Part shown: piece by piece, positions 6,230 to 53,411 of the stretch
Numbering within the stretch: the first letter of the stretch is position 1
Layout of the letters: every line of letters starts with the position of its first letter
Virus record (IMG/VR): IMGVR_UViG_3300034121_000706
Location: 1 to 53,411 of that record
Reading direction: 5' to 3' (one strand)
DNA: 53,411 nt
Origin: a virus
Lineage: Duplodnaviria > Caudoviricetes
Program-made: the position numbers and the translations under genes
Notes under the pieces: model-generated
Seen by the model: only the letters and a program-made list of their open reading frames with translations
What the model was told of the DNA's origin: nothing
Databases searched by the model: none

Positions 6230-6857
6230 CGTCTTGTAAATCTATTTTGGTTTGTAATTCTCTTAATCCAATTTTCTCTGCCTGGTCTAATATGCTCGGT
6301 ATTAACTCGTCAACGATTGGGTAATTTTCCGTATCTGGCATATCCGTTGTATCACAACTCGCTATATACGCAGTCAGTTTACAGTAACTTGGGAACACGC
6401 CATTAAACAAATAAATCTTATCTGCTACACGAACAAAGTATGCGAACTTAGATGAAAACTCTAATTTTAAATTCATGCCTAATTGTGCGATATTCGTTAC
6501 TCGCATAATTTGATTACTGCCTTGCATTAACTGTACAATACCACCGTCATTCGGTAATGCTAATATTCCTTTTGTTGTACCATCGCTATTCTGTGGTAGT
6601 TGTATGTATTGTCGTGTATTGCAATTACCAATACAAGTATCTGTTTCAGTTTGTACCAATAGACAGTCGTATGGTTTAATTATTTGTGCAGGAACTTCGC
6701 CACCGTTTCTTTTATTAATCCATTCAGACATTAATGATGCGGATGCAGTATCTAACCAAAAGCGTATCTGTTCTCTTGGAATAGCAAAATCATCACTCGG
6801 TTTAGCGTGTGACAATCGCAATTCTACATCGCTTATCATGTTGTCTATACTCGGCAT
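6213..6857 (-). CDS. Tail ring/tubular protein (crAss-like)
   Basis: SDDFAIPREQIRFWL N-terminal motif and C-terminal YPI...DLQDD typical of crAss ring proteins. Confidence 0.75.
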   Translation of the reverse strand: MPSIDNMISDVELRLSHAKPSDDFAIPREQIRFWLDTASASLMSEWINKRNGGEVPAQIIKPYDCLLVQTETDTCIGNCNTRQYIQLPQNSDGTTKGILALPNDGGIVQLMQGSNQIMRVTNIAQLGMNLKLEFSSKFAYFVRVADKIYLFNGVFPSYCKLTAYIASCDTTDMPDTENYPIVDELIPSILDQAEKIGLRELQTKIDLQDDGIPT

Positions 6858-19300: not shown

Positions 19301-22300
19301 TTGCATCGTCTTCTACAATATCGTTAATAGCGTTACTATTTATTTCGTCTTGTTGTGCTTTCACGTATGCCTGTACTTCATCGTACACTAATGTACTTTC
19401 CGCATCTGTCGGTTGTTTTACGACATTTGACGCTTGTTTCACTTTCTCTGCCAGTTCCACATACTTTGCAATATCACTAACGTCTAATGGATTTATAGTA
19501 GCAAAATCCTGTAATACCCCTGTAAGTTTACCCGACTGCACACCGCCCTTGCGTTTTGAACGTGCCTTAATTACTTCATATAATGTCTTTGCTTTTTGGT
19601 AAGTACGTTGGTCTGCTAAGTTTGCGATTTGGTTTATGATTTTACCTAAACGTACTGTACTGTTTTTCTCTACTGCGGTTGTGGCAAGGTTAATTAGTTT
19701 CTCTGCCTGTTTGCCCGTAATGCCGCCTAAATTGCCTTTAATTAATGCGGTGATATCAGCAACCATTTGTTTCTGTTGTTGCTTTAAACCCGCCTTATTT
19801 GCTGAATTATCGGCTTTTAGGTTATACACCAATAACTTGTATTTTATTTTTACCTTATCCGTTGCACTTAATGGCAGTGCTTCGTAAATCTTCTCTAATT
19901 GAGAAGTGGTAAACATCGCTTTTAGTGCAGGATTCTGTTTAATTTCTTCAATAAATGCGTCACGTTGGTCTGTATCAAAATTAAAGTCTGTTGCTTCTAA
20001 ATATGCTTGTGCTACATCGTATGCCTTTCCGATTTCTTCTTTTGATGGATTGTTGACTATCTGAAACAAAGGCTGTCCAAACTCTGCCATTTCTTTCAGT
20101 TCCGGTGTTATATCTATGGAATATTGGGTTGATGTTCCACCTGTTTCAGTTCCAGATGCCGCTTCTTGCGCTTGTTTCACGCTATTATACACACCAACTT
20201 TTTCTTCTCCACGCCATAATGTATATTTAATTCCGTCACTTGTGCCTATTTCATAGGTAATATCATCAAGTTCTGCTTTCCATTGTGGAAATTTACCTAT
20301 ATAACCAGTAACTTCCCAATCATTAAAGTAAACTTCATTTGAAGGTGAAGAATCAGATAATTTAACTTCAATTGCTTTCGGCTCTTGCTTAAACAAACTC
20401 TTTGCTACATTACCTACTATACCTAGACTACCTTCTGTTGGTGAACCATAAAAGCCTTTCATTCCTTTGCCACCAATTTTCAAATCCACTCCACGAACTG
20501 TATGAAATTCGGGGTTTTCTTTCATATTCTTTTTCCACTCTCTGCCCTTATTTCTATCAGCACCTTCAATAAGTTTTTGTGTCAAATCCTTACCAACAAT
20601 GCTTTCCATTTCTTGTGGCGTAACTTTCTTTCCGCTTCTTGAATATGGTTCAATTTCTTGCCCTTGTTTATCTTCTACAATTAGTTGATATGTTCCATCA
20701 TTGTTTTTACTTGCACTTGCAGCGTTAATTTGCTTACTCAAATCATATCTTTCATTCTGTTGCTCTCCTGTTGTCCAAGCTATTTTATCTACACCTTGTT
20801 TAACTGCTTCTTTAAGGGCTACTTTTAAACCAAGTTTAGTCCAAGCGTTTGTGTCGGTTACGAATGGTGCTTGTGGTGTTTTTCTTTCTTGATTAACTGC
20901 TTTATGCCATTTAAGCATTAAATCTTTATTGTCATAAGGCACTTGAAAATCATTAAGAATATCATTACTTTTAGCCATTGCCGTAGCCAAGCCTTTCCAA
21001 TCACTAAATCCTGCCGTTTCGTTCATTTTCTTCAAAACAACAACTGCATCTTTACCTAATTGAGTATCCCATTCAAAAGATGGTTCTTTAAATCCTTCTT
21101 TTTTCCCAGACTGCCCCCAATCGCTTTGTACTTCCTCCAAAAATAACACCTTATTGCCGTTCACATCGGTACGTGTATTCATTCTTAAATGAACAAGGAT
21201 ATTTGGCTCGTCAAAATGTGATGATTTGAATGTCTTTTTTCTTTGAGTATCAAGTTCGCTATTGTATTTAAAGCCTGAATAATATTTATTTAAAGCCTCG
21301 CTATAGCCACCTTTTTTCAAAGCATCCAAAGCCTCAATGGCTTCCGGATAATCCTTATCATTTTTAAATTCTTCACTTCTACCCTGTTCATCGTAAATTT
21401 TCATTCTACGCAAAGCACCTTCTGAATCGTTTAAGCCTAATTTTTCTAATGCCGGCTTGAGATACTTATCCCTAACTACATGATACGGCTCACCTTTTAT
21501 TTCTTTTTCAGGCATCGTAACCAACACCTCTTTGTAGTTGCTTTTTTCGCCTTCTAGTTGATAATCTGAGAATTTGGTTTGATTTCTAAAAGCCTCTTTC
21601 TTTTCGTCTGAGGACATATTGCGAATGTTGTCATTTATTTCATCAATTGCTATATCAATTGCATCTTCTTTGCCATCAGAATCATCTTTATATACTTCAA
21701 TTCTTCCATCATTATCAAAATTAACATACCATGATGTTTCATCTTCGTCAACAGAAGTTACATTGTTCCTGCGTATTTTTAATTCACCATCATCTTTCAC
21801 TACCTCAACAACTTCAATTCTATTTTCTTTTAGATACTGCTGAATTTCTGCTTTAGATACTGAACCTTGTTGTGAACTTAACCAATCCGTTAATCCTGTC
21901 CATTTCGCTTCATCGCCTTTGCCAAATTTATCTAGCCATTGTTTTGCCGGTAATTTATCAAATTTAGTTTCACCAATAATTTTTTCTAATGGAGAATAAA
22001 ATCCGTTTACTACTTCTGCGCCGCCATTAATTTCTTTTACCTTAATGTTTTCGCCTTGGAATGTAATTGTTTTTTCAGATGATTTCTGAGTACCAATTTT
22101 ACTATTTAAAATCTTACCACCCAATAATTCACCTACTACTTTTTTAGTGAACATATTGAACTTATCATCGGCACTAAGGTTTTTAATGCCTAATTTATCG
22201 CCTATGGTCTTAAAGAAATCAGATAGCCATTCTTTAAAGCGTTTCAGCATTGTAGGATTGCCATTGAATAACTGCTCACCTTTGTTTCCGATTGCAGTTA

Positions 22301-25300
22301 CAAGTGCTTCTGCCTGGATTTCAGCAATGGACTTTCCTTTGTATGCCGGATTCTTTTGTATCTCTGCGATTAATGCACGACCTTGTGGTGACAGTTTCAG
22401 TAATTCTATACCACGTTTAAATCCTTCGGGAAATACAGACTGCCATATGTGCCCGAATTCATGTATCGGTGTGTTTGCGTTAAGATTATCTGTATTTATG
22501 AATACTTTGCCATCGGGTGTTTTAAATCCGTAGATTGTGCCGTCTTTAGTTTTAACATCGGTTATCGCTATGCCTTTGTCTTGTAATTCTTTTTTAGCAT
22601 TTTCAAAATTATTCTTACCAAACAACTCTACTTTCACATTCGGAAATGCCTTTTTAAGTTTGTCTATCAGTTTCGTGAATACACTTTCTGATATTGGTGT
22701 GAATGATTTGTCTGTGGATTGTAGGTCTAAGTCTTTTTCTTCTTTGACTTGTTGGCTATTTTCGCTGCTGCTAATATCAGCGCTACTACCTTGCCTTTCC
22801 CCGCTTTTGTCTGTGGTTGTTTCGGTTGTTCCATTTGCTTGTTCATATTTTAGTGCTTCTTCCCAATTAATTGAACCATCTTCATTTACAAATTTAGCAT
22901 ATAAATCTGAATATTGCTTAAATTCTTTTTCATCAGATTCGGATATATTACTTAATGACTGCAATTCACTTTCAGATACATTATCATATTCTGATAAGAA
23001 ATCTGTTGTTTCATTTGCCTTCTGCGCCCAAAATAAATCTTCTCCGGTTACATCAATTCTCTCATAATTACCACCAAAACCACGTACAAGCGGTAACGAT
23101 TCCATGCTTCCGTACTCGTTTATTGCGTTGGCGACACGATTGATATTGGTAGATTCTGTTTTACCTGCGTCAATGTCTGCTTTTGCACGTCTGATTTCTT
23201 GCCAGGTTAAACCTAATTGCGATGCGTCAATATGATAATCAGTATCATTTCCGTTCCACTCAAACCAACTCTGTGCAATTTCTTTTACCTTTGCAATTAT
23301 ATCGGGAGATACCGAAACTTCTGTTGGTGCAATATTTATCTTTCTTATCTTCTTGCCTTTCTCGTTCAATACATCAATCTTATCACCTAATTTACCCTTT
23401 ACGGTATATCCTAAATCAGATGCAAGTTTCTGTATCTTCTGACGTATCTCTGACTTTCTTGTTTTCTTATTTGTCGGAGTAGAATTGTATTCACGCATTA
23501 AGCCAACTAATCTGTCGTGCTTATCGTTCTTTAGTTTCTGTTCGGATGATACTTGTTCAGCTTTCTTTTGTGGTTCTGCTTTGGGTTGTACTTCGTCAAC
23601 ATAAGACTTTTGCTCACCTTTAAACTTCACTTTTTCCTTATCGAATACCACTAATTCACCTTCTTGTGTCTTGCTTTCACGGAAATAGATACCATCGTAT
23701 CCTTGTGCCTTTAACTCGTTTGTGGTTAATTCAGCAAGTTTCTTTATTCCTTTATCGTTAAGATTGTCAAGCGTTACCCTACCATCAGGCAATTTTTGAT
23801 AGTCAACGGTATCAAATTCGTCAAACTTATCTTTATTGGCATTTAAAACTTCTTGTCTTTTGTCCACCAATCCATAGTCGCCGTTCTCCACCACAAGCGG
23901 ATTTTTGATGTCAACTTCTACCCTTTCTGCCTTATTGTCTTTGGTTTCGTAGCGATTGCCTTTTTCTGTGGAAACAAACGTGCCTAACGCTTGATTTTCA
24001 CCCATGTTTTTCCCTTTTACATGGGTAAGATTTTTGGATTTTATTTCATCAATAATAGCATTAGGCTTTTTTGTAAGTAATTCTTTTTTTAGATTATCTA
24101 CATATTTATCTACTAGCAATGCAGGTGGAACACCATTTGGATAATCTCTCTGTATTCTTTCTGCAATTATTACAGCATCATTTGCATTATCAAACTCAAT
24201 ATTTGATGCAGGCAATTGACTGTCTTTTTCACCAATATTTAACAGGACTTTATTGCCAAAGTCGTTTACTCTGTGTTTTTCAGTTTCATAATAAACATTT
24301 GAACCATTTCCTAATTGTCTAATAGGTTTTATCTCTTGTTCATTTTGTTGAACTTCTTTTCCGTTGGACACATTTTGTCCATCTCCTTGTTGAACTCCGT
24401 TATCGTTTTCTGGTGTTTGTTGTATTCCTGTGACGTTATTTTGTTCTTGCCCTGCGTTAATAGGTTCAACTGGTGTAATAGGATTCTCTTGCTCATCTTG
24501 TATTCTTTTATACTCTACATTCGCCTGATTAGATGCTTCATCTTGCGGTATAATTAATTCAGAACGGTCTTGTCCGAACTGCTCTTTCGCCTGTTCACGA
24601 TTAATAATTGTACCGTCTGACAGCTTAAACAACCCTTCCGCTTGTCTATCAACTTGCGAAATATCTTGTCCATCTGCTTGTGCTTTTAATATAGCTTCTG
24701 CATGGTTTTTACCTTCGTACTTCTTGCCATTAATATTGATAACCGCACTTGTAATTTGTACCGGTTCAACACCTTTCGGTTTATTCCTTACATCTGTTAA
24801 TGCGGATTTCTCTACTGTGATAATTCCATCTTCACCAATTTCAGGATTGTTGGTATTTATTACCACTTCACCATCTGCAAGGTCGTCAAGTATAGTAACT
24901 TCTGCACCATTGTAAGTTGCAATCTTATCTTCCTCTATCAGCGTATTCGGATTGGCAATATTACTCAATGCTTTTTCCTTGCCTTTATTGTACGTGCCGT
25001 CTGCAACTTCTTCTAAACGCTTATTAATGTCGTCTAACAGTAATTGATTCTTCTTATTCAACACTTCGTCATTCACCTGCGACATCGTATTTTTTAGCGT
25101 GTACTTTTTTAATAATAGTTCCGCTAAATCATCATGCAAATCTTCTTTAATAGTAGGCTTAACCGAATTGTACTGTTTCGATATTTCTTCAAATGCTTTT
25201 ACCTCGTAATCAAACTTACCTTGTTCAATATCTCCATCTGCCAACATCTTCTGTCGCATATCCACGAACTGTTGTGGATTATCAAGTGCGTTCTGTAATG

Positions 25301-27692
25301 CTATCTTGCGTTGTTCGGGTACTGAATTAGCAACTTCAATAGGTGTCATTAGTAAACTCGCCATCGTGGTAATCATAGCGGTTTCTATCGTCTGCTTGGT
25401 ATCAAAGAATGGTTTATTCAAATCTTCAAATCCTTGCTGACCGTTTTTCTGTGCTTTGGTATTGTAGTATGTTTCCGTTGCACGTTGTACTGCCGGTTCT
25501 AATACCAATTCCTCTAAGTTTTCACCGAACGTATTCTTTACACCTTCCTTAGCCATACGTTTAGCGTACTGTCCTATTGACATTTCGCCTGAACGGATTA
25601 ACTGCACATCTGCTTTGGATATATTGTTTGATATAAACTTACCTATACTTTTACTTGCCGTACCTTTTACGATATTGGCTTCCATTGGATTCACCAAAGT
25701 AACCATACCTGTCATTATAGACGTTAGTGTGGCAAAGTCATTCGCTTCTTGTGGTGTCAGTCCTGCTGTTAATCCGCTTTCGTACATATCTCCGTACATC
25801 TGTGCTGCGGAAACGCCTATTGTTGTTGCGGTTGATACCGTTCCTGCCGTTCCTGCACCCGCTACTAAACCTGTTGCACCGCCTGTCAATGCAGCAGTTG
25901 CCATCATCGTACCCATATCAAGTATCGTTGGTGTGGCTTTGGTAATTAATGTTGAGAAACTGAAATCACTTTCGGTTTTATATGCCGTTGGGTTTTCATT
26001 GTACTTATCTGTGATTTCCTTTTTAGTCTTATCATTTATATTCCTGAACTTATCATCACGTACATCGTTTTTAGGCTTACCGTTTTCATCTAACATTACT
26101 TTATAACCGTCTACATCTGCATACTTCTGTATAATATCACGTTGTACATCAGTAGCGGTAGGATTAAGTATGTCACGTTTCTTACTTGCGTAAATTGCCT
26201 GGTCGAACATTTTATCAAATACATCGTACTTGTTTTCGTCACCAATGGGATTTAAAATATCTAACATCTTTGGTACAGATGCCAATGCTTTTAGTGTTCT
26301 GCCTAATAGCTTATCGCCTTCATCTGCAACCTTTGCGCCTGTGAATGTTTTATCGGATTCTCCTGTAATCAAATTCTCTGCCATTACAACAGGACTTAAT
26401 TGAGATAGCGCACCCATAATATCACTCGCCTTTCCTAAGATACCTTTACTCTGATACGCTTTTTTCATCGCATCTTTTTTGGCTTGTGCCTTGTCGCCTT
26501 CATCTAATAATTTACGATATTCTGCAAATTCAGGTTTACTTATCTCTGAATTTGCATCATTAGTTAATTGGTTTATTTTGTCGTTTATATTAAGGTATGT
26601 TGTGAAATCTTCATCTTGTACTTTAGAATTTATACCTTCCTGTTTTTTTAGTATTTCTTCTCGTCTGCCATCTATATCTTTTTCAATCGCCTGTATCTGT
26701 GCTAACTTAGCATTGTACATAGGTTCAGCCTGTTCTTTTGGTAATTGATTTTCTGTAATCTGTTTTTCTATATCCTTTAATTCCAAAACAAGTTTATCGT
26801 ATTCAGATTTTCTTTTTGTAGAGTACAAACCAAACTGCTGTGCTTCTGCCTGTATCTGTGTATTCTGTTTTGCTATATCTGTAAAGAAATCTTCACCGAA
26901 CTTAGATTTTAAAACACTTTCGTATGACTTACCTCTATCATTTAATGCTCTTATCTGTGCATCGTAAATAGACATTTCACCATTATATGCCTGTGCGTTA
27001 TTATTAGAGTTTGACTGTATTTCAAAATCTAATTCTTCTGCCGTTTTATCTTTATTTAAAAAATATTTTAGTTGGTCTTTGTCTGTATTTAACAACTCCT
27101 CTGTTGATAGTGTATTCACAATACTAAGTTTGCTTACGGGAGTTATTCCTTTATCTAACACTACTGTATTATCAGAAGATTTGTCTGTAACATCAACTAA
27201 GTATGGATTTTCTTGTTGTGCTATTTCAGGTTGTTCAGAAACTGTTGTGCCTTGTCCTAAAATAGATTTATCGGCAAATCCTTTTTGTCCGTTATCTATC
27301 AAATAATCACCTGTAATTTGCTGTTCTTTTGTCGGTATTCCGATTGGCTTCTTTGTTGTTATTGGTGTTTTAGTGGTTGCTGTATTATTGAATGTAGGAA
27401 TTTTAAACATAGAACTATTAAAACCTAAATCTTGTGTAGTATATTTTAAAACTCCTACACCTTTAGTTGATGTTTGTTTTTGTGAAAACAGTTCGGGAAA
27501 TTTTGAGTTTATAGTTTTAAAGTCACTCTTGTATTGTGGATTGTTTGCTGTTGCCACATATTCTTGTAACAACTTTGTATCATATCCTTTAAGTTCAGGA
27601 AACTTTGAGTTTATAATATTCCAATCGCTTTTGTATTGCGGATTATTTGCAGTAGCAACATACTCCTGTAATATATCTTTTACTTCCGCCAT
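16380..27692 (-). CDS. Giant polyvalent internal virion protein (ART-like, zincin metallopeptidase and other domains)
   Basis: 3770 aa; Gly/Ala hydrophobic hairpins; GYDGI...EGELVVFD ART-like; NTPIHEFGHIW HExxH; SHFDEPN...LEEVQSDW domain; helical C-terminus. Confidence 0.8.
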   Translation of the reverse strand: MAEVKDILQEYVATANNPQYKSDWNIINSKFPELKGYDTKLLQEYVATANNPQYKSDFKTINSKFPELFSQKQTSTKGVGVLKYTTQDLGFNSSMFKIPTFNNTATTKTPITTKKPIGIPTKEQQITGDYLIDNGQKGFADKSILGQGTTVSEQPEIAQQENPYLVDVTDKSSDNTVVLDKGITPVSKLSIVNTLSTEELLNTDKDQLKYFLNKDKTAEELDFEIQSNSNNNAQAYNGEMSIYDAQIRALNDRGKSYESVLKSKFGEDFFTDIAKQNTQIQAEAQQFGLYSTKRKSEYDKLVLELKDIEKQITENQLPKEQAEPMYNAKLAQIQAIEKDIDGRREEILKKQEGINSKVQDEDFTTYLNINDKINQLTNDANSEISKPEFAEYRKLLDEGDKAQAKKDAMKKAYQSKGILGKASDIMGALSQLSPVVMAENLITGESDKTFTGAKVADEGDKLLGRTLKALASVPKMLDILNPIGDENKYDVFDKMFDQAIYASKKRDILNPTATDVQRDIIQKYADVDGYKVMLDENGKPKNDVRDDKFRNINDKTKKEITDKYNENPTAYKTESDFSFSTLITKATPTILDMGTMMATAALTGGATGLVAGAGTAGTVSTATTIGVSAAQMYGDMYESGLTAGLTPQEANDFATLTSIMTGMVTLVNPMEANIVKGTASKSIGKFISNNISKADVQLIRSGEMSIGQYAKRMAKEGVKNTFGENLEELVLEPAVQRATETYYNTKAQKNGQQGFEDLNKPFFDTKQTIETAMITTMASLLMTPIEVANSVPEQRKIALQNALDNPQQFVDMRQKMLADGDIEQGKFDYEVKAFEEISKQYNSVKPTIKEDLHDDLAELLLKKYTLKNTMSQVNDEVLNKKNQLLLDDINKRLEEVADGTYNKGKEKALSNIANPNTLIEEDKIATYNGAEVTILDDLADGEVVINTNNPEIGEDGIITVEKSALTDVRNKPKGVEPVQITSAVININGKKYEGKNHAEAILKAQADGQDISQVDRQAEGLFKLSDGTIINREQAKEQFGQDRSELIIPQDEASNQANVEYKRIQDEQENPITPVEPINAGQEQNNVTGIQQTPENDNGVQQGDGQNVSNGKEVQQNEQEIKPIRQLGNGSNVYYETEKHRVNDFGNKVLLNIGEKDSQLPASNIEFDNANDAVIIAERIQRDYPNGVPPALLVDKYVDNLKKELLTKKPNAIIDEIKSKNLTHVKGKNMGENQALGTFVSTEKGNRYETKDNKAERVEVDIKNPLVVENGDYGLVDKRQEVLNANKDKFDEFDTVDYQKLPDGRVTLDNLNDKGIKKLAELTTNELKAQGYDGIYFRESKTQEGELVVFDKEKVKFKGEQKSYVDEVQPKAEPQKKAEQVSSEQKLKNDKHDRLVGLMREYNSTPTNKKTRKSEIRQKIQKLASDLGYTVKGKLGDKIDVLNEKGKKIRKINIAPTEVSVSPDIIAKVKEIAQSWFEWNGNDTDYHIDASQLGLTWQEIRRAKADIDAGKTESTNINRVANAINEYGSMESLPLVRGFGGNYERIDVTGEDLFWAQKANETTDFLSEYDNVSESELQSLSNISESDEKEFKQYSDLYAKFVNEDGSINWEEALKYEQANGTTETTTDKSGERQGSSADISSSENSQQVKEEKDLDLQSTDKSFTPISESVFTKLIDKLKKAFPNVKVELFGKNNFENAKKELQDKGIAITDVKTKDGTIYGFKTPDGKVFINTDNLNANTPIHEFGHIWQSVFPEGFKRGIELLKLSPQGRALIAEIQKNPAYKGKSIAEIQAEALVTAIGNKGEQLFNGNPTMLKRFKEWLSDFFKTIGDKLGIKNLSADDKFNMFTKKVVGELLGGKILNSKIGTQKSSEKTITFQGENIKVKEINGGAEVVNGFYSPLEKIIGETKFDKLPAKQWLDKFGKGDEAKWTGLTDWLSSQQGSVSKAEIQQYLKENRIEVVEVVKDDGELKIRRNNVTSVDEDETSWYVNFDNDGRIEVYKDDSDGKEDAIDIAIDEINDNIRNMSSDEKKEAFRNQTKFSDYQLEGEKSNYKEVLVTMPEKEIKGEPYHVVRDKYLKPALEKLGLNDSEGALRRMKIYDEQGRSEEFKNDKDYPEAIEALDALKKGGYSEALNKYYSGFKYNSELDTQRKKTFKSSHFDEPNILVHLRMNTRTDVNGNKVLFLEEVQSDWGQSGKKEGFKEPSFEWDTQLGKDAVVVLKKMNETAGFSDWKGLATAMAKSNDILNDFQVPYDNKDLMLKWHKAVNQERKTPQAPFVTDTNAWTKLGLKVALKEAVKQGVDKIAWTTGEQQNERYDLSKQINAASASKNNDGTYQLIVEDKQGQEIEPYSRSGKKVTPQEMESIVGKDLTQKLIEGADRNKGREWKKNMKENPEFHTVRGVDLKIGGKGMKGFYGSPTEGSLGIVGNVAKSLFKQEPKAIEVKLSDSSPSNEVYFNDWEVTGYIGKFPQWKAELDDITYEIGTSDGIKYTLWRGEEKVGVYNSVKQAQEAASGTETGGTSTQYSIDITPELKEMAEFGQPLFQIVNNPSKEEIGKAYDVAQAYLEATDFNFDTDQRDAFIEEIKQNPALKAMFTTSQLEKIYEALPLSATDKVKIKYKLLVYNLKADNSANKAGLKQQQKQMVADITALIKGNLGGITGKQAEKLINLATTAVEKNSTVRLGKIINQIANLADQRTYQKAKTLYEVIKARSKRKGGVQSGKLTGVLQDFATINPLDVSDIAKYVELAEKVKQASNVVKQPTDAESTLVYDEVQAYVKAQQDEINSNAINDIVEDDAMTFFTVLDNKTKAKFGDDKTFDDLNEPQQREVFESITKDDIKKYGLTDEERDMVEAFKEIKTEQKRQDFITATYNKIGELKDLLANSVGVITQSPAEKEITDALLNVKLDDMTATEMARVLKLINGITQNNDYSGGGAFVAQQKAVEVNSKMNTLKSEIGEFRKLSEGGSKFRNFQQISVAMAKGKKLGAKLMEASGINNLMRGIAKTKTYSHNLQKAFKAEKFKSSVFEPISQMRQSIYAAVIQTKIGDDIKEAEHIARWKRIIEKNIENLRTINKEGYKEQADLLQKALDEVIGGRQQLKDIADNMSKIDSEGKRVVQFFTDNHAEQKPRFRENSLLFHNKEIEEYNSYTKLSITSLTGDTVRDTGEKLMNDARSTGITKKKSKSMIDRANYESLNDNTGLDFNFINRQMKALGDNEYDINTSADITTLANAFNSDNKQLRELLGAKNFDLLKKRLQTIVGTSKYEETTIVDDLLNEATKISRTIALGSITQVLKQSTVLMSTYLNSAGKGNIKGLDFTMLFGNKRQKENLQKLFAQSEIGARRAEGAGGYYDNTTIKKNISDGNAKKILKAIGKGRDFFSDLSMYPLRSFDILAADISWITFYKKYLRDNNLAFDENNEFKNPNKEAMAYAETMVQTAQGANTEAGQAEVWGSAKGLTQLALPFMSFAVQAKARLVDNTMNIANGDDRIEAGRDIGAYITEQIAFNAVKLGIGTFVATQLIPALLKELGLGDDDEEKETEAEKEKAELEKLRKAEQIKSSFVNNILQDLVYGTMPMVDNMATKPAINFLYNHIFKTNTGIIPNYNRSTDFNILSGGTVGVGYNQLLNLKDDINIITDNNAFGDYKSQSQVSVFTYKGKDYTIVHNGRYTRRDMFFNNVKGRMDVSNSTVPADVLKAFIENPSDFKLKEELRKTSSSQDGDLSLSLTDEQKTYAKIMLMADLLTFYGINETVFNQINNKVRGEMKKQIIKK
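27489..27671 (-). repeat. Two tandem 34-aa (102-bp period) repeats at N-terminus of giant protein
   Basis: LQEYVATANNPQYKSD(WNI/FKT)INSKFPEL occurs twice. Confidence 0.9.
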
Positions 27693-38011: not shown

Positions 38012-39360
38012 AATTTCAGTTTACTTATTATCTGTGCCAATACGTTTACCACAATCGAATTACCTGCCTGTTTGTATGCCTGACTGTTGCTGACAACCGA
38101 GAAATCGAATGTATCGGGAAAATCCATCAAGCGGAAACATTCTCTTGGTGTTAACTTTCTAATCCTTTTACTACTCTCCACCGCATTCGTATCACCTGTA
38201 TCTAAACAGTACGTGATTCCATCTGTCCAGGACAGATGCCCTGTACCGCCTTTACCTGTCGTACTTGAACGTGGCATCATGTTGTGGACTACAATATCTT
38301 CAACCTCATACAATCCTGTCTTTGCACCCAATCCACCACCTTCTGATTTTATTGTACAAGCAATACCATTATCATCGTATATTCTGCCTGCATCAGAATT
38401 GTTTTCATACAAACTACCAACCTGTGTTAGCTGCGGGATTGCTTGTACTTCTATCTGTTTTGGTTGCTTATAGTCAGTTGCAGTTAAGCAATTCATTAAT
38501 TTACTGTTCTCGCTAAACACCAAACCTCTCTCACCGCCTTTTTCTAAATCACCGACTATATCGTAATCCTGATTCAACTTCAAAATATTATCACTAATAT
38601 CTAATGAAGATGAAGATGAAGTAATCGCACCCGCAACACCTTCCTCATCCTTAAAGTTTATCTTACCTGCATTAAAGTTATCAGCACAATTGTTAAAATA
38701 CTCCAACATCTTATCACTTAAATAATACTTTTCATCCACTTCACTTTCCAAAACATCTTTCAACCTTTTAGTCAACGGTATCTCTTTTGGAAAACTAAAC
38801 ACATTATCTGCATCATCACGAATACCTATAATAAACACCCTCTCCCGATTCTGCGGTACACCAAAGTCTTTTGCATTCAGAACCTTCCAGTACACATGAT
38901 ACGGTACTGCACCATCATACGGAAAAACAATAGGCATACCATTAACCGATTTACCACCCAAGAGATGCAACCACTCACTAAAAGTTTTACCACCATCATC
39001 ACTCAATAAGCCTTTTACATTCTCGAATATGAAATAACGTGGCTTGTTCTTAACTATAAACTCATGTGAATTGAAAAACAAAATACCTCGCTTATCATCC
39101 TTACCTAACCGCTTACCGGCTAAACTGAAACTCTGACAAGGAGGACTCGTCATATAAATATCCAAACTATCGCCAGGTATCTCCCTCTCATAAACATCAC
39201 TCGGATAATAGTCAGGCTCACCGTAGTTGTGTATATAAGTCAATCTTGCATACTTATCCTTATCACAGGCAAAAACAGTCTTATGTTTTATACCCAATCG
39301 CATCAACGACTGCTCAAATGCACCTACTCCGCTAAAATCAGAACCTACTCTTATACTCAT
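38008..39360 (-). CDS. DNA cytosine-5 methyltransferase
   Basis: FSGVG (I), PPCQSFS (IV), ENVKGL (VI), PQNRERVF (VIII), RKLTPREC (IX), QAGNS (X). Confidence 0.95.
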   Translation of the reverse strand: MSIRVGSDFSGVGAFEQSLMRLGIKHKTVFACDKDKYARLTYIHNYGEPDYYPSDVYEREIPGDSLDIYMTSPPCQSFSLAGKRLGKDDKRGILFFNSHEFIVKNKPRYFIFENVKGLLSDDGGKTFSEWLHLLGGKSVNGMPIVFPYDGAVPYHVYWKVLNAKDFGVPQNRERVFIIGIRDDADNVFSFPKEIPLTKRLKDVLESEVDEKYYLSDKMLEYFNNCADNFNAGKINFKDEEGVAGAITSSSSSLDISDNILKLNQDYDIVGDLEKGGERGLVFSENSKLMNCLTATDYKQPKQIEVQAIPQLTQVGSLYENNSDAGRIYDDNGIACTIKSEGGGLGAKTGLYEVEDIVVHNMMPRSSTTGKGGTGHLSWTDGITYCLDTGDTNAVESSKRIRKLTPRECFRLMDFPDTFDFSVVSNSQAYKQAGNSIVVNVLAQIISKLKL

Positions 39361-39986: not shown

Positions 39987-40283
39987 TATTATGCAGTCCT
40001 TTGTTTTGCTATTATATACTGATAAAAAGAAATTTAGAAAGGAAATAGAACTAAAAAAGAATATCGGTTAGCTCCTCTCCTACCCTACTGCTATATATAT
40101 GAGTGCTATCTGTACGCTGTTTCCTTAAAGTATCTGTATATATATGCGTATTGCTTTTAAATATCGCCTGTATTTCGTCTTCGTTTGTGTTTTGTTCCTG
40201 GTGTTTGGTGGTTGTTCGCTTAATATTGTGCCGGTTAACTTACTGCGGATTGTGTATTATGTGTTGAGATTTAAAAAAATGAT

Positions 40284-40291
40284 TATCTTTG
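40284..40291 (+). promoter_or_regulatory. Bacteroidota -7 promoter element (TATCTTTG)
   Basis: TAnnTTTG upstream of 40355. Confidence 0.55.
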
Positions 40292-40354
40292 CGCTGTGGC
40301 TTCATATCCTTTTCAAGTTCACAATATTTATGCACATAAGGTAAAAGATATAAA

Positions 40355-40642
40355 ATGGCTCAAAGGATTAGAAATAATAGTTTAGCTAATTACCTGTATA
40401 ATGATTGCCGGATTATATTACTACATATTATTGGCAGTGATTATAAAAAGTTTGCAGATAATCACGGTATTAATGTTCAATCGGTTCAAAACTTCATTAA
40501 ATGGAATTATTCAGATTATGTACTGCATACATCAGATAAAGTGTATAGATATTTAAGCATAGAAAATTGTATTAAGATTCTAGAGTTATCCGGTTATGAA
40601 ATACGGTTAAGTTTAGTATTAAAAAATGATGTTGAAATTTAG
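40355..40642 (+). CDS. Putative Cro/C1-type HTH regulator
   Basis: YKKFADNHGINVQSVQNF HTH-like; LSIENCIKILELSGYEI tail. Confidence 0.6.
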   Translation: MAQRIRNNSLANYLYNDCRIILLHIIGSDYKKFADNHGINVQSVQNFIKWNYSDYVLHTSDKVYRYLSIENCIKILELSGYEIRLSLVLKNDVEI

Positions 40643-41189
40643 CGTATTTTTTACCTGTTTTAATGGTGTTATTTTCAATGATTTTTTAAGGTGTTAAAAT
40701 GGTATGTTTTAGGCTAAATAATGGCTAAAATGCATGTTTATGTTATTTTGTAACTGTTGTATGTTACTGTAATAGGCTTAATTATTGTTTTAAACTATCA
40801 AATTTCAATTATTTTATCTTTTTGGTGTATTGATACCACTTTTAATAAATAATGGCTTAAATATGGTTTAAATCAATTTTAGTTTTTAGATTTTTGTATT
40901 TCTGAAAGAAATATTTTAGTGTTATTGTTACTGTTACTCTTAAGCTTGTTACAATGTCTGTTGCATAATCTGTGACAATGTATGTTACAGAGATAAGTTT
41001 TATTGATTATCAGCTATTTGTGTAAAAAATGTGTATGTTTTTATTTTAGAGTTGAAAAAATAATATTTCAAAAGTTTTTCAAAATTATTTCAAAAACTTG
41101 CAAAAAAGTGGTAAAAATGGGCAATAAATATAGATTTTAATAATGTTTTAAAAATAGGCTGTTTTTAGTGGTTTATTTTGGTGGTTTTT

Positions 41190-41546
41190 TTACCTGCCAT
41201 TTTTCAGATAATTTTTACTAATTAAATAGATATTTTGATAGTCTGTTTTTTGTATTATTTCATGCTGAATTAATGCATTGATTGATTTATAAAATACAGA
41301 CTTTTTGAGTCCTGTTTTTTCCTGGTTAATTACAATTTTACTTTTATTGATGCCAATATTTTTACAGATATATTGTATTAGTATTATTTCAGATGTAGTT
41401 AATAAATGTAATTTATCTATTAATGGAATAAAGAATTTTATAAATTTATCATTGCTGCCAGTGAATTGCTTTTTAGTTTTTAGCAGCATCATGTATTCAC
41501 CCGTTGAAGGATCAACAACCGGAATATTTATTTTAATTTGTTTCAC
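41190..41546 (-). CDS. RepL-like winged-helix replication/maintenance protein
   Basis: VDPSTGE...KFIKFF...wHTH KSVFYKSINALI...NIYLI; resembles plasmid RepL-type proteins. Confidence 0.6.
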   Translation of the reverse strand: MKQIKINIPVVDPSTGEYMMLLKTKKQFTGSNDKFIKFFIPLIDKLHLLTTSEIILIQYICKNIGINKSKIVINQEKTGLKKSVFYKSINALIQHEIIQKTDYQNIYLISKNYLKNGR

Positions 41547-41592
41547 TCTCTTTATATACTACTAAGAAGGAAATGTTAAAACAGTCGTAAAA

Positions 41593-41632
41593 AGTCCACG
41601 TTTTGTGGAAATTAGTCCACGCCGTGTGGACT
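41593..41632. promoter_or_regulatory. Two tandem palindromic TCCAC-N5-GTGGA sites (operator/iteron)
   Basis: agtccacgttttgtggaa and agtccacgccgtgtggact, 21-bp period, upstream of the RepL-like gene. Confidence 0.6.
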
Positions 41633-41669
41633 ATCATAATAATATTATTAATGTGTTTATACACTCATT

Positions 41670-42001
41670 TATGTTAAATATTTCACCTTATAAGATGTGG
41701 CGCAAGTTGTCGGATAACTTAAACACACCTTATAAGGCTACTATATTTATATTATTTCTATTGGTTGAAATGTTCCGACATTCAACGCTATTATACAAAT
41801 ATACAATATAAACTGCCAGACTAAACAACATTTATGTACTTAGTATTTAGCTAAAATATACCTATTTTAATACATTAGATTATTTCTATATGTTAAATAT
41901 TACACTGCTTACATATTAAAATAAATACGGGTTAATCAATGTTTATTGATAGTTTAGTGTATATTGATATACTTGTTAATCAATCTAATATGTTAAATAT
42001 T
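41670..42001 (+). repeat. Three copies of TATGTTAAATATT
   Basis: At 41670, 41889 and 41989. Confidence 0.7.
41796..41803 (-). promoter_or_regulatory. Bacteroidota -7 promoter element (TATATTTG)
   Basis: TAnnTTTG on minus strand followed by hairpin 41764-41786. Confidence 0.45.
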
Positions 42002-49878: not shown

Positions 49879-50433
49879 ATGCAACTCAAAAAAGCAAAAG
49901 ATAATTGGGTTAATATTCCTTTTGATTATGAATATGAAATAACAAGATTCGGTCACGTTAGAAATATTAATACAGGAAACGTAATAAGGCATTTTACCAA
50001 TAGAGGTGGATATAAGTATTGCACAGTAAGCAACAGTGGTAGGAAAAGGAATATAATGATACATAGACTTATTGCACCTGTATTTATTCCAAATCCAAAT
50101 AATAAGCCATCTATTAATCACATTAATTGCAACAAAACAGACAACAGAATAGAAAACTTAGAATGGTGTACGCCAAAAGAAAATGCAATACACGCAAGGC
50201 AGAATGGATTAACTGTAAATCCGCCTTCACAAAATGGAAAACTTGGTAAACTCAACAGTACATCAAAGCCAGTAAGGCAGATAGATTTATCCGGCAATAT
50301 TATTCGTGATTATGATTGCGCAAGACAAGCTATGGAATACGGATTTACACCATCACATATTAGCAGATGTTGTAATGGAACAAAAGAAAAATACAAAGGA
50401 TATAAATGGACTTTCATAAATAAAAACAAATAA
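49879..50433 (+). CDS. NUMOD4-HNH-NUMOD1 homing endonuclease
   Basis: YEITRFGHVRN, HRLIA..FIPNP.NKP.INHIN.NK.DNR..NLEW, C-terminal NUMOD1-like domain. Confidence 0.92.
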   Translation: MQLKKAKDNWVNIPFDYEYEITRFGHVRNINTGNVIRHFTNRGGYKYCTVSNSGRKRNIMIHRLIAPVFIPNPNNKPSINHINCNKTDNRIENLEWCTPKENAIHARQNGLTVNPPSQNGKLGKLNSTSKPVRQIDLSGNIIRDYDCARQAMEYGFTPSHISRCCNGTKEKYKGYKWTFINKNK

Positions 50434-50437
50434 TAAA

Positions 50438-51385
50438 ATGGGAAAATTAAGACAGGCGACAAGAACAAGAGCCAAAATCAGATTAGGACTTTCAGCGGTT
50501 TCAGGTGGGGGTAAGACAATGAGTGCATTACTTATAGCTAAGGGTATTTGCGGTGATCTATCAAAAGTAGCATTAATAGACACAGAAAATGGAAGTGGTG
50601 ATTTATATGCACACTTAGGAAGCTATAACGTATTACCATTAGAACCCGATTTCACTCCTGAAAAATATATAAGTGCTATTCACGAATGCGAAAATGCCGG
50701 AATGGAAGTTATTATAATTGATTCCATAACGCATGAATGGGATGGCAAGGGCGGAATATTGGATATATCAAACTCAATGTCAGGGAACAGCTATACTAAT
50801 TGGGCAAAATTAACACCAAGACATCAAGCGTTTATTGATGCTATCCTACAATCAAAATGCCACATTATTACAACGGTAAGAAGAAAGCAGGATTACGAAA
50901 TGACAACCAATTCAAGTGGCAAGTTAGTTCCGCAAAAGGTTGGACTGAAAGAGGTAACAAGAGAAGGGTTTGAATATGAATTAACAATAAACTTAGAACT
51001 TGACACAAAGCACAATGCTTCTGCATCAAAAGACAGAACAGGTTTGTTTATTGGTAAGCCTGAATTTGTACCATCAGAAGAAACAGGGAAACTCATTAAA
51101 GATTGGTGCGAAACCGGTGTAGATGAAAGTACCGCCATTACAGACGCAGTTACAAAATTGGCTAACTGCAATACAGTAGATGAATTAAAAGCACTGAAAA
51201 TTGAATTACCTGACTTTGTGGTGAAATCACCAGTCTTTACCAAATCAGCAACAGAACGGTACAATGCTATTATAGCACAGTCACCGAAAGAACCGGCAGT
51301 AAATCAAGAATTAACCGAAGAAGAAAAGGCAGAGATAGCAAAGGAAGAAGCGGATTTATTTAGCAAACCCAAAAACAAGAAGTAA
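50438..51385 (+). CDS. AAA_24 / Sak4-like recombination ATPase
   Basis: SGGGKT Walker A, IDTENGS, IIIDSITHEW, FEYE, KDRT. Confidence 0.9.
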   Translation: MGKLRQATRTRAKIRLGLSAVSGGGKTMSALLIAKGICGDLSKVALIDTENGSGDLYAHLGSYNVLPLEPDFTPEKYISAIHECENAGMEVIIIDSITHEWDGKGGILDISNSMSGNSYTNWAKLTPRHQAFIDAILQSKCHIITTVRRKQDYEMTTNSSGKLVPQKVGLKEVTREGFEYELTINLELDTKHNASASKDRTGLFIGKPEFVPSEETGKLIKDWCETGVDESTAITDAVTKLANCNTVDELKALKIELPDFVVKSPVFTKSATERYNAIIAQSPKEPAVNQELTEEEKAEIAKEEADLFSKPKNKK

Positions 51386-51386
51386 T

Positions 51387-51557
51387 ATGCCAAAGGAATG
51401 CGAGGAATGTGACGGAACAGGTAAAGTATGTTATTCGTGCTGCGGTGACGACATAAAAGGAAATGACATTGATTTATGCCCTACCTGTTACGAGCATTGT
51501 AGCCTTGAAGAAGAAGATTGTGAATCGTGCAATGGAACAGGAATTATTGAAGATTAA
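51387..51557 (+). CDS. DnaJ-type zinc-finger mini-protein (56 aa)
   Basis: Hand-translated MPKECEECDGTG...CPTCYEHC...CESCNGTGIIED. Confidence 0.8.
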   Translation: MPKECEECDGTGKVCYSCCGDDIKGNDIDLCPTCYEHCSLEEEDCESCNGTGIIED

Positions 51558-51568
51558 AATAACCACCA

Positions 51569-51964
51569 ATGACAACCACAGAGCAAATAAATATGATTTA
51601 TTCAGACACACAAGGAAGCCTATACGTGCTGAAATCAGGTGCAGTGGAGTTATCTCTTAACTGCGAGAAAAGAACACGCAAATTAGGTCATTTTGGTACA
51701 CCGCCAAACGGTGTGTTGTCATACTATAAACATGAGAAAGAAAAAGATGTATTTCGTAAGACAAATGCATGGAGTATTAATTGGAATGTTATACAATACT
51801 TACCGAGTGACAGCAGTATGATAAACATTAAATCGGAAGGTGGTATTTACCGTATCAGTAAGGAGAAGGCATTGAAAATGGGTGAGTTCATGTTTTTTAA
51901 GAATGCCGGTATTGAGAAGAAGATTTACGTGCGGAAGATATTTTTTGATGTGGATGGGTTATAA
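51569..51964 (+). CDS. Hypothetical protein
   Basis: 131-aa ORF; its stop codon lies in the first TAAC of the array. Confidence 0.75.
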   Translation: MTTTEQINMIYSDTQGSLYVLKSGAVELSLNCEKRTRKLGHFGTPPNGVLSYYKHEKEKDVFRKTNAWSINWNVIQYLPSDSSMINIKSEGGIYRISKEKALKMGEFMFFKNAGIEKKIYVRKIFFDVDGL

Positions 51965-52080
51965 CGATTGGTGGCTTGGCGAAGTTGCCGAACACAAAAC
52001 TTCATTAGAATTACAAATTTTAAAATTAAGATAAAATGTCAATAGAAAACGAATACGGCAATTTTGCCAAACCGATGTTA
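51962..52080 (+). repeat. attC-like hairpin site A
   Basis: taacgattggtggcttggcgaagttgccg ... cggcaattttgccaaaccgatgtta, imperfect inverted repeat with unpaired bases. Confidence 0.8.
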
Positions 52081-52257
52081 GGCGAAGTGTATTTGGTTAA
52101 AAAAAATAAAAAGTTTATGAAAGGTCACGGATATAGCACATTAAATGGTTATAAATTTAATTGGACTTTTGATAAAAATGAAGCGAGGAAAATGGAGTAT
52201 TCAACTGCTAATAGTTTAGCTATATCAAGCGGTGGTTCTGTTTTACATTTCGCCTAA
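52036..52257 (+). CDS. Cassette-associated hypothetical protein
   Basis: Starts inside site A, ends at the TAA of the next TAAC. Confidence 0.7.
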   Translation: MSIENEYGNFAKPMLGEVYLVKKNKKFMKGHGYSTLNGYKFNWTFDKNEARKMEYSTANSLAISSGGSVLHFA

Positions 52258-52455
52258 CGATTTGCAGATTGGCGGTCGTTTTTTAACCAATTAAATAAAC
52301 GAAAATGGAATTACAAACAGCAATAGAAATACTTGAATACCATCAGGAATGGAGATTAGGTAAAAGAGAAGATATGATTCACGAACCTAAAAAACTGATA
52401 GAGGCTTTGGATATAGTACTAAGCGAGGTTAAAAAATTTCGCATAGGTGCTGTTA
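52255..52455 (+). repeat. attC-like site B (arms poorly matched, chimeric)
   Basis: Left arm resembles site E, right arm taggtgctgtta shared with site C. Confidence 0.6.
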
Positions 52456-52556
52456 GCGGTTCGTTGCTTGATGATAAGTGGAAACAATATAGAAATATTA
52501 CTAATAATGAAGATGCTTGGTGCTTTAAAGAGTGGTTAAAAAGCAATGACCGCTAA
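52305..52556 (+). CDS. Cassette-associated hypothetical protein
   Basis: Starts inside site B, ends at the TAA of the next TAAC. Confidence 0.7.
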   Translation: MELQTAIEILEYHQEWRLGKREDMIHEPKKLIEALDIVLSEVKKFRIGAVSGSLLDDKWKQYRNITNNEDAWCFKEWLKSNDR

Positions 52557-52679
52557 CGGTTCGCAGCTAAACGAGGTGGCTGATTATACCTCGAAACTTT
52601 AATTAAAGGAACAAAATTATGAATATAGACAAAACTCAATCAGAAGCAGAAAGCCAGCCATCTTGTTTAGGTGCTGTTA
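52554..52679 (+). repeat. attC-like hairpin site C
   Basis: taacggttcgcagctaaacgaggtggctg ... cagccatcttgtttaggtgctgtta. Confidence 0.8.
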
Positions 52680-52912
52680 TGCGTAGTGTTTCTGATGTTA
52701 TCAAAGAAGGTAGTATAGTTTGGGTAAAATCATCTAACCAACAAATTCATTGTGGAAGGGTGGATAAACTTTATCCCGAAACAAATGAAGCAATGGTATT
52801 TAATTTTGATGCTTGGACACATTGGCAAGTATCTTATGATAATATTGTAAGAGTAGGGGTAAAACATTTTAACGGTGATGGGTACAATGATTGGATGTCT
52901 AGGCTTCCTTAA
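52619..52912 (+). CDS. Cassette-associated small SH3/KOW-like protein
   Basis: Starts inside site C; IKEGSIVWV...GRVDKL beta-barrel pattern. Confidence 0.7.
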   Translation: MNIDKTQSEAESQPSCLGAVMRSVSDVIKEGSIVWVKSSNQQIHCGRVDKLYPETNEAMVFNFDAWTHWQVSYDNIVRVGVKHFNGDGYNDWMSRLP

Positions 52913-53034
52913 CATTACGCATAACTAATCGCTAACACTTTAAAATGTACGCACAAATAAAGCCTACAACGTTTATTAGAAATGCTATAAGAGATATGGA
53001 AAGTGAATTGCGTAGTCGGTATTAGAATTACCGC

Positions 53035-53083
53035 TAACGTTCCTCAGATTGGCGGTCGTTTTAATGCTGCCAATGTGCTGTTA
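53035..53083 (+). repeat. Short attC-like hairpin site E (49 bp)
   Basis: taacgttcctcagattggcggt ... gctgccaatgtgctgtta. Confidence 0.75.
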
Positions 53084-53110
53084 TATTTAGGTTTTTAAAA
53101 CTTTAGACAA

Positions 53111-53311
53111 ATGACATTAAAAGAATTAAGAGAAAAAAGAAAGAAAGCAGAACCATTTTTTAGCGATTGCTGCAAAAAAAGTTTTGTTGGAAAAAGTAAT
53201 GGTTTATACACATACTATGTTTGTGAATGTGGCAAAAAAACAACACCAATAAACGGCAAAGGAAAAATGCTTGATTTATACGGATTAGTTAAACGAGTTT
53301 TAAAAACTTGA
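53111..53311 (+). CDS. Cassette-associated small Cys/Zn-binding protein
   Basis: SDCC...YVCECGK; wholly enclosed between 23-bp inverted repeats. Confidence 0.7.
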   Translation: MTLKELREKRKKAEPFFSDCCKKSFVGKSNGLYTYYVCECGKKTTPINGKGKMLDLYGLVKRVLKT

Positions 53312-53355
53312 ATATAACGATTAACAGATTTATTTAGTTTATTAATTTATATATC

Positions 53356-53411
53356 ATGGAAGAAATAAAGAAAATATTTGAAGAAATAATGGATTATCAG
53401 ATGAATAATGT
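53356..53411 (+). CDS. Partial ORF in next array unit
   Basis: ATG at 53356 after TAAC 53315; runs off window. Confidence 0.5.
   Translation, partial: MEEIKKIFEEIMDYQMNN

Follow-up and report, generated by a model that had tools for sequence, protein, structure and literature searches.

The end of a viral contig of the Caudoviricetes (Duplodnaviria; IMG/VR record IMGVR_UViG_3300034121_000706), which was analysed over its full 53,411 nucleotides (nt) and is called the window here, carries from position 51962 to the contig end a series of plus-strand open reading frames (ORFs) with attC-like hairpin sites between them. The array has a regular architecture with covarying stems and a sense-strand bias, its frames stay open across the hairpin arms, and it is mosaic both among relatives and in lake metagenomes. 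We think it probable that this is a hairpin-delimited array of gene modules, in which two kinds of unit, L and R, are exchanged at both of their borders and the N- and C-terminal parts of proteins are recombined. That the resulting fusion proteins are made and used we infer from the sequences.

Architecture of the array and its site family

Each site consists of TAAC followed by G, a spacer of 5–7 nt, a stem with its loop (the L stem) and a closing GTTA. The bases 3′ of each GTTA are complementary to the bases 5′ of the next TAAC, and these form a further stem (the R stem). The ATG codons at 52036, 52305 and 52619 lie inside hairpin loops, and the reading frames that they open cross the 3′ arm. 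The features of the array are as follows.

51962–52080, plus strand: L site 0; TAAC at 51962–51965, spacer 51966–51972, GTTA at 52077–52080
51973–51990 with 52056–52073, plus strand: stem of L site 0, 18 bp; 65-nt loop 51991–52055 with ATG 52036
52036–52257, plus strand: ORF A, 73 amino acids; contains FAKPMLG; the stop is the TAA of the TAAC at 52255–52258
52077–52258, plus strand: R module A; arms 52077–52091 and 52244–52258, 15 nt, 93% complementary
52255–52455, plus strand: L site 1; TAAC, spacer, canonical left half 52265–52282, variant right arm 52440–52452, GTTA at 52452–52455
52305–52556, plus strand: ORF B, 83 amino acids; contains RIGAVSG; the stop is the TAA of the TAAC at 52554–52557
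52451–52557, plus strand: R module B; about 106 nt long, without its own ATG; arms 52451–52460 and 52548–52557
52554–52679, plus strand: L site 2; TAAC at 52554–52557, spacer, CAG and 16-bp stem, GTTA at 52676–52679
52619–52912, plus strand: ORF C, 97 amino acids; contains CLGAVMR; leader residues 1–20 from loop and arm
52676–52925, plus strand: R module C; arms 52676–52690 and 52911–52925, 15 nt, 93% complementary
53035–53083, plus strand: L site 3, canonical short form; TAAC, 6-nt spacer, CAG and 8-bp stem, 11-nt loop, GTTA
53080–53318, plus strand: R module D; 23-nt arms 53080–53102 and 53296–53318, 91% complementary

An initial annotation of this DNA had proposed that three ORFs start inside attC-like sites and read across a crossover at GTTA. 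The three ORFs (starting at 52036, 52305 and 52619) and the peptides FAKPMLG, RIGAVSG and CLGAVMR are all present on the plus strand, and the frames at GTTA are as it gave them, GCT GTT for ORFs B and C and ATG TTA for ORF A. The starts do lie in hairpin loops: the stems of sites 0 and 2 enclose their ATGs, and ATG 52305 is enclosed by a 10-bp inner stem.

The sites differ in what their loops hold. L site 0, whose TAAC includes the TAA stop of an ORF at 51569–51964, shares about 74% identity over 120 nt with the site 5′ of the gp006 methylase gene of mumin6-1, a cultured, virulent Flavobacterium phage; its loop and 3′ arm encode residues 1–13 of ORF A as a leader, and the body begins at M-L-G-E-V-Y. 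L site 1 joins a left half that is the canonical element to a right half of a variant type found in loci L069 and L087, and between the two sits a nested unit, closed by a perfect 10-bp inner stem (52279–52288 with 52427–52436), that holds ATG 52305 and a 46-residue N-domain. ORF B is accordingly laid out as a two-helix N-domain (residues 1–46), an arm-encoded linker FRIGAV and a 34-residue tail from R module B. L site 2 has ATG 52619 in its loop and a GTG bulge in its 3′ arm, and the conserved body of ORF C begins V-M-R-S-V. In L site 3 the 11-nt loop reads TCGTTTTAATG and the return arm again has a GTG bulge; the arms of R module D that follow enclose the whole of ORF D (53111–53311, 66 amino acids), which has a start of its own.

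The inverted repeats, 15, 15 and 23 nt long, are specific to their modules, begin at GTTA and finish at TAAC. The mismatches in the arms of R modules A (one), C (one) and D (two) are all G.T on the plus strand. The arms of R module B pair more weakly than those of R modules A, C and D, and its 5′ arm can pair with 52923–52937 too.

Three TAAC motifs lie within 28 nt after ORF C (52910–52937), and the 7-nt CGCTAAC occurs on both sides of the ORF C unit (52549–52557 and 52910–52937), where it looks like a duplicated target. A 26-amino-acid ORF with no relatives in the compared loci occupies 52945–53025, between the ORF C unit and site 3.

An 18-mer of the short-form element is present in two copies in the window (0.01 expected) and exactly in 67 viral contigs, the alignment of which has a constant core and variable flanks that finish in TAAC and restart with GTTA. 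Loci were collected by way of this canonical element, and a scan of all of them showed three peaks, near 45, 83 and 122 nt, in the spacing between the T of TAAC and the G of GTTA. We picked 70 long sites less than 70% alike to one another and aligned 43 distinct sites of about 120 nt (alignment A3). TAACG and GTTA are invariant in 43 of 43, and RNAalifold finds 16 pairs, 15 of them with compensatory changes. The fold z-scores of single sequences are only modest (−1.4 to −2.2); it is this covariation that carries the weight of the evidence for a non-chance origin. Complementary module ends are also in excess: 169 R stems of 14 bp or more are observed, where shuffles gave about 19, and when G.T and A.C are scored alike there are 85 distinct R stems of 14 positions or more (lengths 14–26 bp), with about 11 expected. 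R pairs of 10–12 bp are no more frequent than in shuffles. In 56 sites the left spacer is most often 5 nt (26/56) and the right one mostly 1–3 nt (40/56); loops range from 11 to 370 nt; the canonical form has a GTG bulge, and the long form an unpaired column.

Columns 27 and 115 of alignment A3, in the L stem, hold G.U in 43 of 43 sites, which looks like a recognition feature and not drift; columns 24 and 118 (G.U in 32/43) and the unpaired column 18 are likewise recognition-like. In one locus (L134:2640–2760) the core covaries, with GTTG...CAAC for GTTA...TAAC, and a 9-bp R stem is retained.

Sites of the same build occur in cultured phages. Mumin6-1 has about ten of them within 6 kb, among gp003–gp019, a range that includes four DNA methylases, and in Polaribacter phage P12002L two such sites, at 38035–38090 and 38879–38936 of NC_028924, flank the gp54 methylase. 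The canonical 65-nt element had no match in 50,697 phage records, and the matches to Flavobacterium phages in the phage-record search are to degenerate long sites only. In genome contigs the 18-mer was found in 31 stretches, eight with the full element, one with a partial one and the rest at chance level; the full and partial elements are all in Flavobacterium-type or small binned contigs, and a chromosomal integron is indicated by none of the 31 stretches. This type of array is typical of Flavobacteriia phages. The text of the paper that describes the Flavobacterium phages, searched for repeats, stem-loops and palindromes, makes no mention of repeats of this build.

Both kinds of stem favour one strand. 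The 85 distinct R stems contain 98 G.T/T.G against 13 A.C/C.A pairs (38 against 51 in shuffles) and the L stems 69 against 26; this wobble bias indicates that the sense strand is therefore kept foldable. Fold energies of the plus and minus strands favour the plus strand in all three window sites tested (−14.3/−10.4, −17.8/−8.6 for site 2, and −7.0/−5.2 kcal/mol). The sense strand is thus the predicted folding strand.

Coding sequence across the sites

ORF B combines one head with many tails. Its homologues comprise 680 database proteins (E ≤ 0.001), and the best 120 of these 680 were examined. The junction motif was recognised in 105 of the best 120; the remaining 15 were missed by the pattern and have the same head by eye. 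In the 105, the first 49 residues have a median identity of 94% to the window. Past F-R-[I/L]-G-A-V, which corresponds to GTTA, the tails are unrelated, and the 103 tails of at least 12 residues fall into 55 BLASTP clusters. Tails of at least 28 residues are found in 96 of the 105, and 28 open codons would arise by chance in a random frame of 35% GC with a probability of about 0.13 (estimate); the tails are therefore kept open. CxxC pairs occur in many of the tails, and many resemble zinc ribbons. One homologue (P0027) has a tandem double N-domain and then a cysteine-rich tail.

The same boundary is visible in the DNA. Every ORF B locus has 147 nt from ATG to GTTA, and those 147 nt are 91–99% identical to the window in loci L125, L126, L129, L130 and L131, while the next 60 nt are 52–65% identical. 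Covariation over at least three arm pairs links the 5′ arm to the one encoding R-[I/L]-G-A-V. The head also occurs as a stand-alone gene of 48–52 amino acids (in L032, L141, L143, L144 and L146) and in other fusions. For ORF B, AlphaFold predicts a two-helix head, with a predicted local distance difference test score (pLDDT) of about 90 over residues 1–40, and a tail of low confidence.

At the level of predicted proteins, ORFs A and C are the mirror image of this pattern. All 20 of the ORF C homologues keep a leader of about 20 residues and its frame, and in these the leader varies and the body is conserved. Among 16 homologues of ORF A the body is conserved from L-G-E-V-Y onward and the leaders are diverse, with the leader frame kept in 15. 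The methionine at the junction is not invariant in the ORF C homologues, and in several of the ORF A homologues it is replaced by Leu or Val.

When N- and C-terminal parts are compared, homology thus breaks at the GAV/PML junction, as the initial annotation anticipated: a constant head with 55 tail clusters in ORF B, and the mirror of this in ORFs A and C. N- and C-terminal parts are not constantly paired, given the 55 tail clusters behind the ORF B head and the varying leaders of ORFs A and C. Nor are starts downstream of GTTA general, since the leader frame is kept in 15/16 (ORF A) and 20/20 (ORF C) homologues and gp006 of mumin6-1 has a single possible start. With starts in the leader frame and variable pairing of heads and tails, the idea of proteins assembled across the junction therefore stands against both objections.

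Reading through the site is common in the wider collection. Of 35 long-loop modules, 21 have the start of the main ORF in the loop and 12 have it after the R 5′ arm. All but one of the 21 loop-started ORFs extend to the R 3′ arm, with GTTA in phase 0 in 12, in phase 2 in eight and in phase 1 in none, and for 11 of the 20 the 80 nt past GTTA contain no in-frame ATG. The gp006 methylase is the clearest instance: its Pfam domain matches the full profile over residues 37–255, the ATG of the gene is in the loop, and no start codon occurs from GTTA to the catalytic motif, which leaves the loop ATG as the only possible start. Stops peak at the TAA of TAAC (13) and 12 nt before TAAC (13). An ATG is contained in 49 of 56 loops, either as the main start or as the start of a short ORF that mostly crosses GTTA. 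The idea that loop ATGs drive coupled short ORFs was set aside, as for long loops it is indistinguishable from chance.

The 11-nt loop of all canonical sites (53056–53066 in the window) ends in a conserved ATG. The short frame that starts there crosses GTTA in phase 1, stops after 6–18 codons and often ends within about 50 nt of the main start.

A Pfam scan of 76 module ORFs gave matches for 19, nine of which are DNA methylases of four families; the other matches are to TET-associated glycosyltransferase, PAPS-reductase-like, YopX, HD domain, radical SAM and class I tRNA-synthetase-like proteins. Judged by these families, the cargo looks like anti-restriction and DNA-modification functions.

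Probable exchange at the unit borders and alternative explanations

Related loci lose their similarity at the borders of the units. The window and L118 have ORF B in common and diverge directly 5′ of TAAC and 3′ of the next TAAC, and L055 and L106 diverge right after a TAAC. In pairwise matches between loci, TAAC coincides with 47 of the 125 internal left ends and with 25 of the 133 right ends, and GTTA with 16 of those 133; many contigs carry the canonical 45-nt element in identical form, with both flanks differing in 549 pairs. These breakpoint counts and flank pairs are biased because the loci were gathered through the canonical element. Metagenome contigs from four lake-water runs show similar breaks: among the 23 loose ends listed of 49, ten are at TAAC (−1 to +4), three at 9–11 nt after TAAC, four near GTTA and six elsewhere. 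In run X1 one contig passes directly from 52558 to 52914 and is without the unit of L site 2 and ORF C (exactly 52559–52913), another contig of the same run spans that unit, and a contig of run X4 has 74 other letters in place of 52476–52982.

With breaks at both TAAC and GTTA, the L and R units thus behave as separate exchangeable pieces. Homology does break sharply at GTTA, but GTTA as the enzymatic crossover, as first proposed, is not supported, TAAC breakpoints being at least as frequent. A crossover at TAAC only was dropped in turn, because the breaks at GTTA are equally sharp.

In L055 (300–775) and L092 (about 6200–6660) the minimal 11-nt loop of a canonical site houses a gene about 460 nt long. 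By its translation this gene reads as an endonuclease-VII-type HNH nuclease, and it has its own Bacteroidota-like promoter. In L106 (7525–7575) the same site is empty, between identical flanks. Loop insertion is shown for this one homing-endonuclease-like gene, and it may apply to the N-domain unit.

We propose the following mechanism. On the sense strand, L units (TAAC-G to GTTA) alternate with R units (GTTA to the next TAAC). An L unit is an attC-like imperfect hairpin, the loop of which is minimal (11 nt) or holds either an A-rich leader with a start codon or the 46-residue N-domain; an R unit is a gene body closed by its own inverted repeat, with the stop in or at the 3′ arm. Translation would start in the L loop, pass through the melted 3′ arm and continue into the R unit. 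Related phages would exchange L and R units at both borders, and N- and C-terminal parts could therefore be combined in many ways. The exchange itself would be a DNA reaction of the attC × attC kind, directed by structure at the base of the hairpins, a mechanism that we infer since no recombinase is consistently encoded; the enzyme may be supplied in trans or have escaped recognition. A further-reaching version, which is possible and which we hold only tentatively, is that these are integrase-less two-part cassettes, with hairpin "adaptor" and "body" units that yield combinatorial proteins at the level of the population through an undescribed sense-strand enzyme and by which anti-restriction genes such as methylases are re-dealt.

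Several points, in addition to the bias of the locus collection, weigh against exchange by a site-directed reaction. The tyrosine recombinase family PF00589 was found in 2 of 50 element-bearing records and in 2 of 17 records that are at least 90% complete, and it is absent from the window and from mumin6-1, in searches that included no IntI-specific model. Serine recombinase PF00239 was found in 1 of 19 records (1 of 17 at least 90% complete) and Y1 HUH transposase PF01797 in 0 of 19 (0 of 17). The full core consensus of attC is present as RYYYAAC in 11 and as GTTRRRY in 12 of 138 distinct sites. It is the sense strand that folds, unlike the antisense strand in integrons, and an invariant G.U is no less typical of an RNA element than of single-stranded DNA. 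The halves of L site 1 pair poorly and its minimum-energy fold is without the canonical stem; the full structure does form in its relative L129. A search of the loci for one R unit placed behind two different L units gave only one clear case and one artefact. Breaks at the edges of conserved linkers are also expected from plain homologous recombination, and the proteins compared are gene predictions, with frames that are open and translation that is presumed.

A serious rival, which we nevertheless consider unlikely, is that the hairpins act as RNA elements when the early genes are transcribed as one polycistronic message. Each start would then be exposed in an open A-rich loop and each cistron insulated from the next, and shuffling would be a by-product of homologous or single-strand-annealing recombination between conserved linkers, as is proposed for the PeSL motifs of T4-type phages, which are described as promoter and terminator stem-loops (PMC2839356, PMC4122927). 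The folding of the sense strand, the tolerance of G.U pairs with one of them invariant, and a minimal loop ending in a conserved ATG, with an ATG in 49/56 loops, agree with this explanation. So do the want of a consistently encoded recombinase, the AAA_24 (Sak4-like) protein encoded just upstream (50438–51385) and the identical canonical 45-nt element between differing flanks in 549 pairs. However, homology in linkers leaves the R-unit inverted repeats (14–26 bp, 85 against about 11) unexplained, and the L sites are diverse, their 70 classes being less than 70% alike, so that they offer little homology for exchange. An ATG in a loop of 70 nt is about 70% likely by chance (estimate), and a sigma-70 scan found promoters (8 against 8.9 expected) and terminators (1 against 1.3) in no excess, although the scan does not cover Bacteroidota promoters.

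A second alternative, which we regard as improbable, is that the loops are landing sites for small selfish genes and that the N-domain unit has been inserted in many L sites, the tails reflecting the place of landing. The endonuclease-VII-type gene in the loops of L055 and L092, with L106 empty, is a precedent, and the N-domain unit does have a 10-bp terminal inverted repeat and lies between at least three covarying arm pairs (window/L128, L129–L131 and L134). But insertion of this kind covers ORF B only, and in ORFs A and C it is the leaders that vary and the bodies that are constant; moreover, the N-domain unit encodes no nuclease, and the R/L architecture is left unexplained. Finally, to a chance array of unrelated small phage ORFs and incidental palindromes we give practically no credence: the fold z-scores are weak (−1.4 to −2.2) and R pairs of 10–12 bp are no commoner than in shuffles, but this explanation is refuted by the excess of R stems (169 R pairs of 14 bp or more, with about 19 in shuffles), the wobble bias and the covariation of 15 of 16 pairs, and it must also contend with an exact 18-mer common to 67 contigs.

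If units are indeed exchanged at hairpin borders, a recombination site doubles as coding sequence, and the exchange would remodel proteins and not gene content alone. Lytic phages of an abundant aquatic host group could then re-deal their early genes; the describers of Muminvirus link its methylase content to plating efficiency on different hosts (PMC7077304). Such exchange would bear on the origin of integron cassettes and attC sites and on whether attC-like sites can work without a resident integrase, and mumin6-1 and P12002L are cultured, non-pathogenic systems in which it could be tested directly.

Genomic setting and comparison with known systems

The window is the whole viral record, a linear sequence with a completeness estimate of 36%. 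The minus strand carries structural genes, including those for portal and large terminase, and the plus strand carries small early genes from about 40 kb. Directly 5′ of the array lie an HNH/NUMOD4 endonuclease gene (49879–50433) and then the gene for the AAA_24 (Sak4-like) protein. DNA similarity points to Flavobacterium phages (13 of 15 matching phage records), and the sequencing runs that contain the stretch are for the most part lake-water metagenomes, with no RNA runs listed among them. A PHROGs search of the 60 other ORFs of the window found no recombinase. For ORFs A–D and the 26-amino-acid ORF, Pfam and PHROGs gave no family at the E limit of 0.01 except for one weak Pfam line, Ig_NUP210_2nd in ORF A, which was disregarded (E 0.009; 16.2 bits, where the cut-off is 27). 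Nothing in 51000–53411 matched Rfam at E up to 1, and a protein atlas search returned only unnamed clusters of 44–48 amino acids.

Elsewhere in the window, 16380–27692 on the minus strand is one open frame of 3770 amino acids amid the structural genes. The GC content falls to 26% at 40000–42000, where the minus-strand late genes meet the plus-strand early genes, and near that meeting point, at 40751–40987, there is an inverted repeat TAAC...GTTA with a 13-bp stem.

Literature searches found no description of this architecture or of coding sequence running through such sites. In shufflons and Gin/Cin-type segments the crossover lies inside the coding region and joins a constant N-terminal part to alternative C-terminal parts, by inversion within one genome, with an adjacent dedicated recombinase and fixed repeats. 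Unlike in shufflons, the variety here is between genomes, no recombinase is encoded, the sites are covarying hairpins and all modules are co-oriented. In integrons, attI1 (ORF-11) or an upstream start can supply a start or leader to a cassette, as an occasional feature of attI. The sites described here likewise give a start and leader, but as a regular inter-cassette design (21 of 35 long-loop sites). Hairpin elements of the IS200/IS605 or REP/RAYT type differ in their association with a Y1 HUH transposase, PF01797 being found in none of the 19 records.

Like PeSLs, as these are portrayed in the two papers cited above, the sites are short conserved stem-loops that separate small early genes in the variable parts of lytic phage genomes, where ORFs are inserted, deleted or replaced. 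Unlike PeSLs, they show no excess of promoters or terminators in the sigma-70-type scan, which leaves Bacteroidota promoters outside its scope; their modules have an inverted repeat of their own, and coding sequence crosses the stems.

PMC2727003 gives as features of attC sites the AAC/GTT triplets, a G after AAC, an unpaired spacer, a variable terminal structure and complementary cassette ends. The sites of the array share the conserved AAC/GTT triplets in an imperfect hairpin, with the G after AAC invariant in alignment A3, the second (L) stem, the unpaired spacer and stem bases, and a loop that ranges from a few nt to large. Their size (about 45–125 nt) and the preference for one strand are also attC-like, and, as in integron cassettes, the 5′ end of a cassette is complementary to a box at its own 3′ end. 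The cargo is rich in methylases (nine among the 19 module ORFs that match Pfam), like that of the clusters of attC sites lacking integron-integrases (CALINs) of virulent phages; PMC9892861 reports such attC-like clusters in virulent phages including P12002L, predicted around methylase genes, and one predicted P12002L attC, which may be one of the two sites found here, that was recombined with attI1 by IntI1.

The label attC-like given in the initial annotation is apt for the hairpin build and does not extend to the full core consensus, an integrase or an antisense fold. Unlike integrons, the array has no integrase, attI or Pc, and unlike attC, most of its sites lack the RYYYAAC/GTTRRRY consensus. 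Because the sense strand folds, its ORFs are inverted relative to those of classical cassettes. And, in further contrast to attC, the ORFs begin within the site and read through its arms, the R stems are 14–26 bp long, and both borders of a site act as breakpoints.

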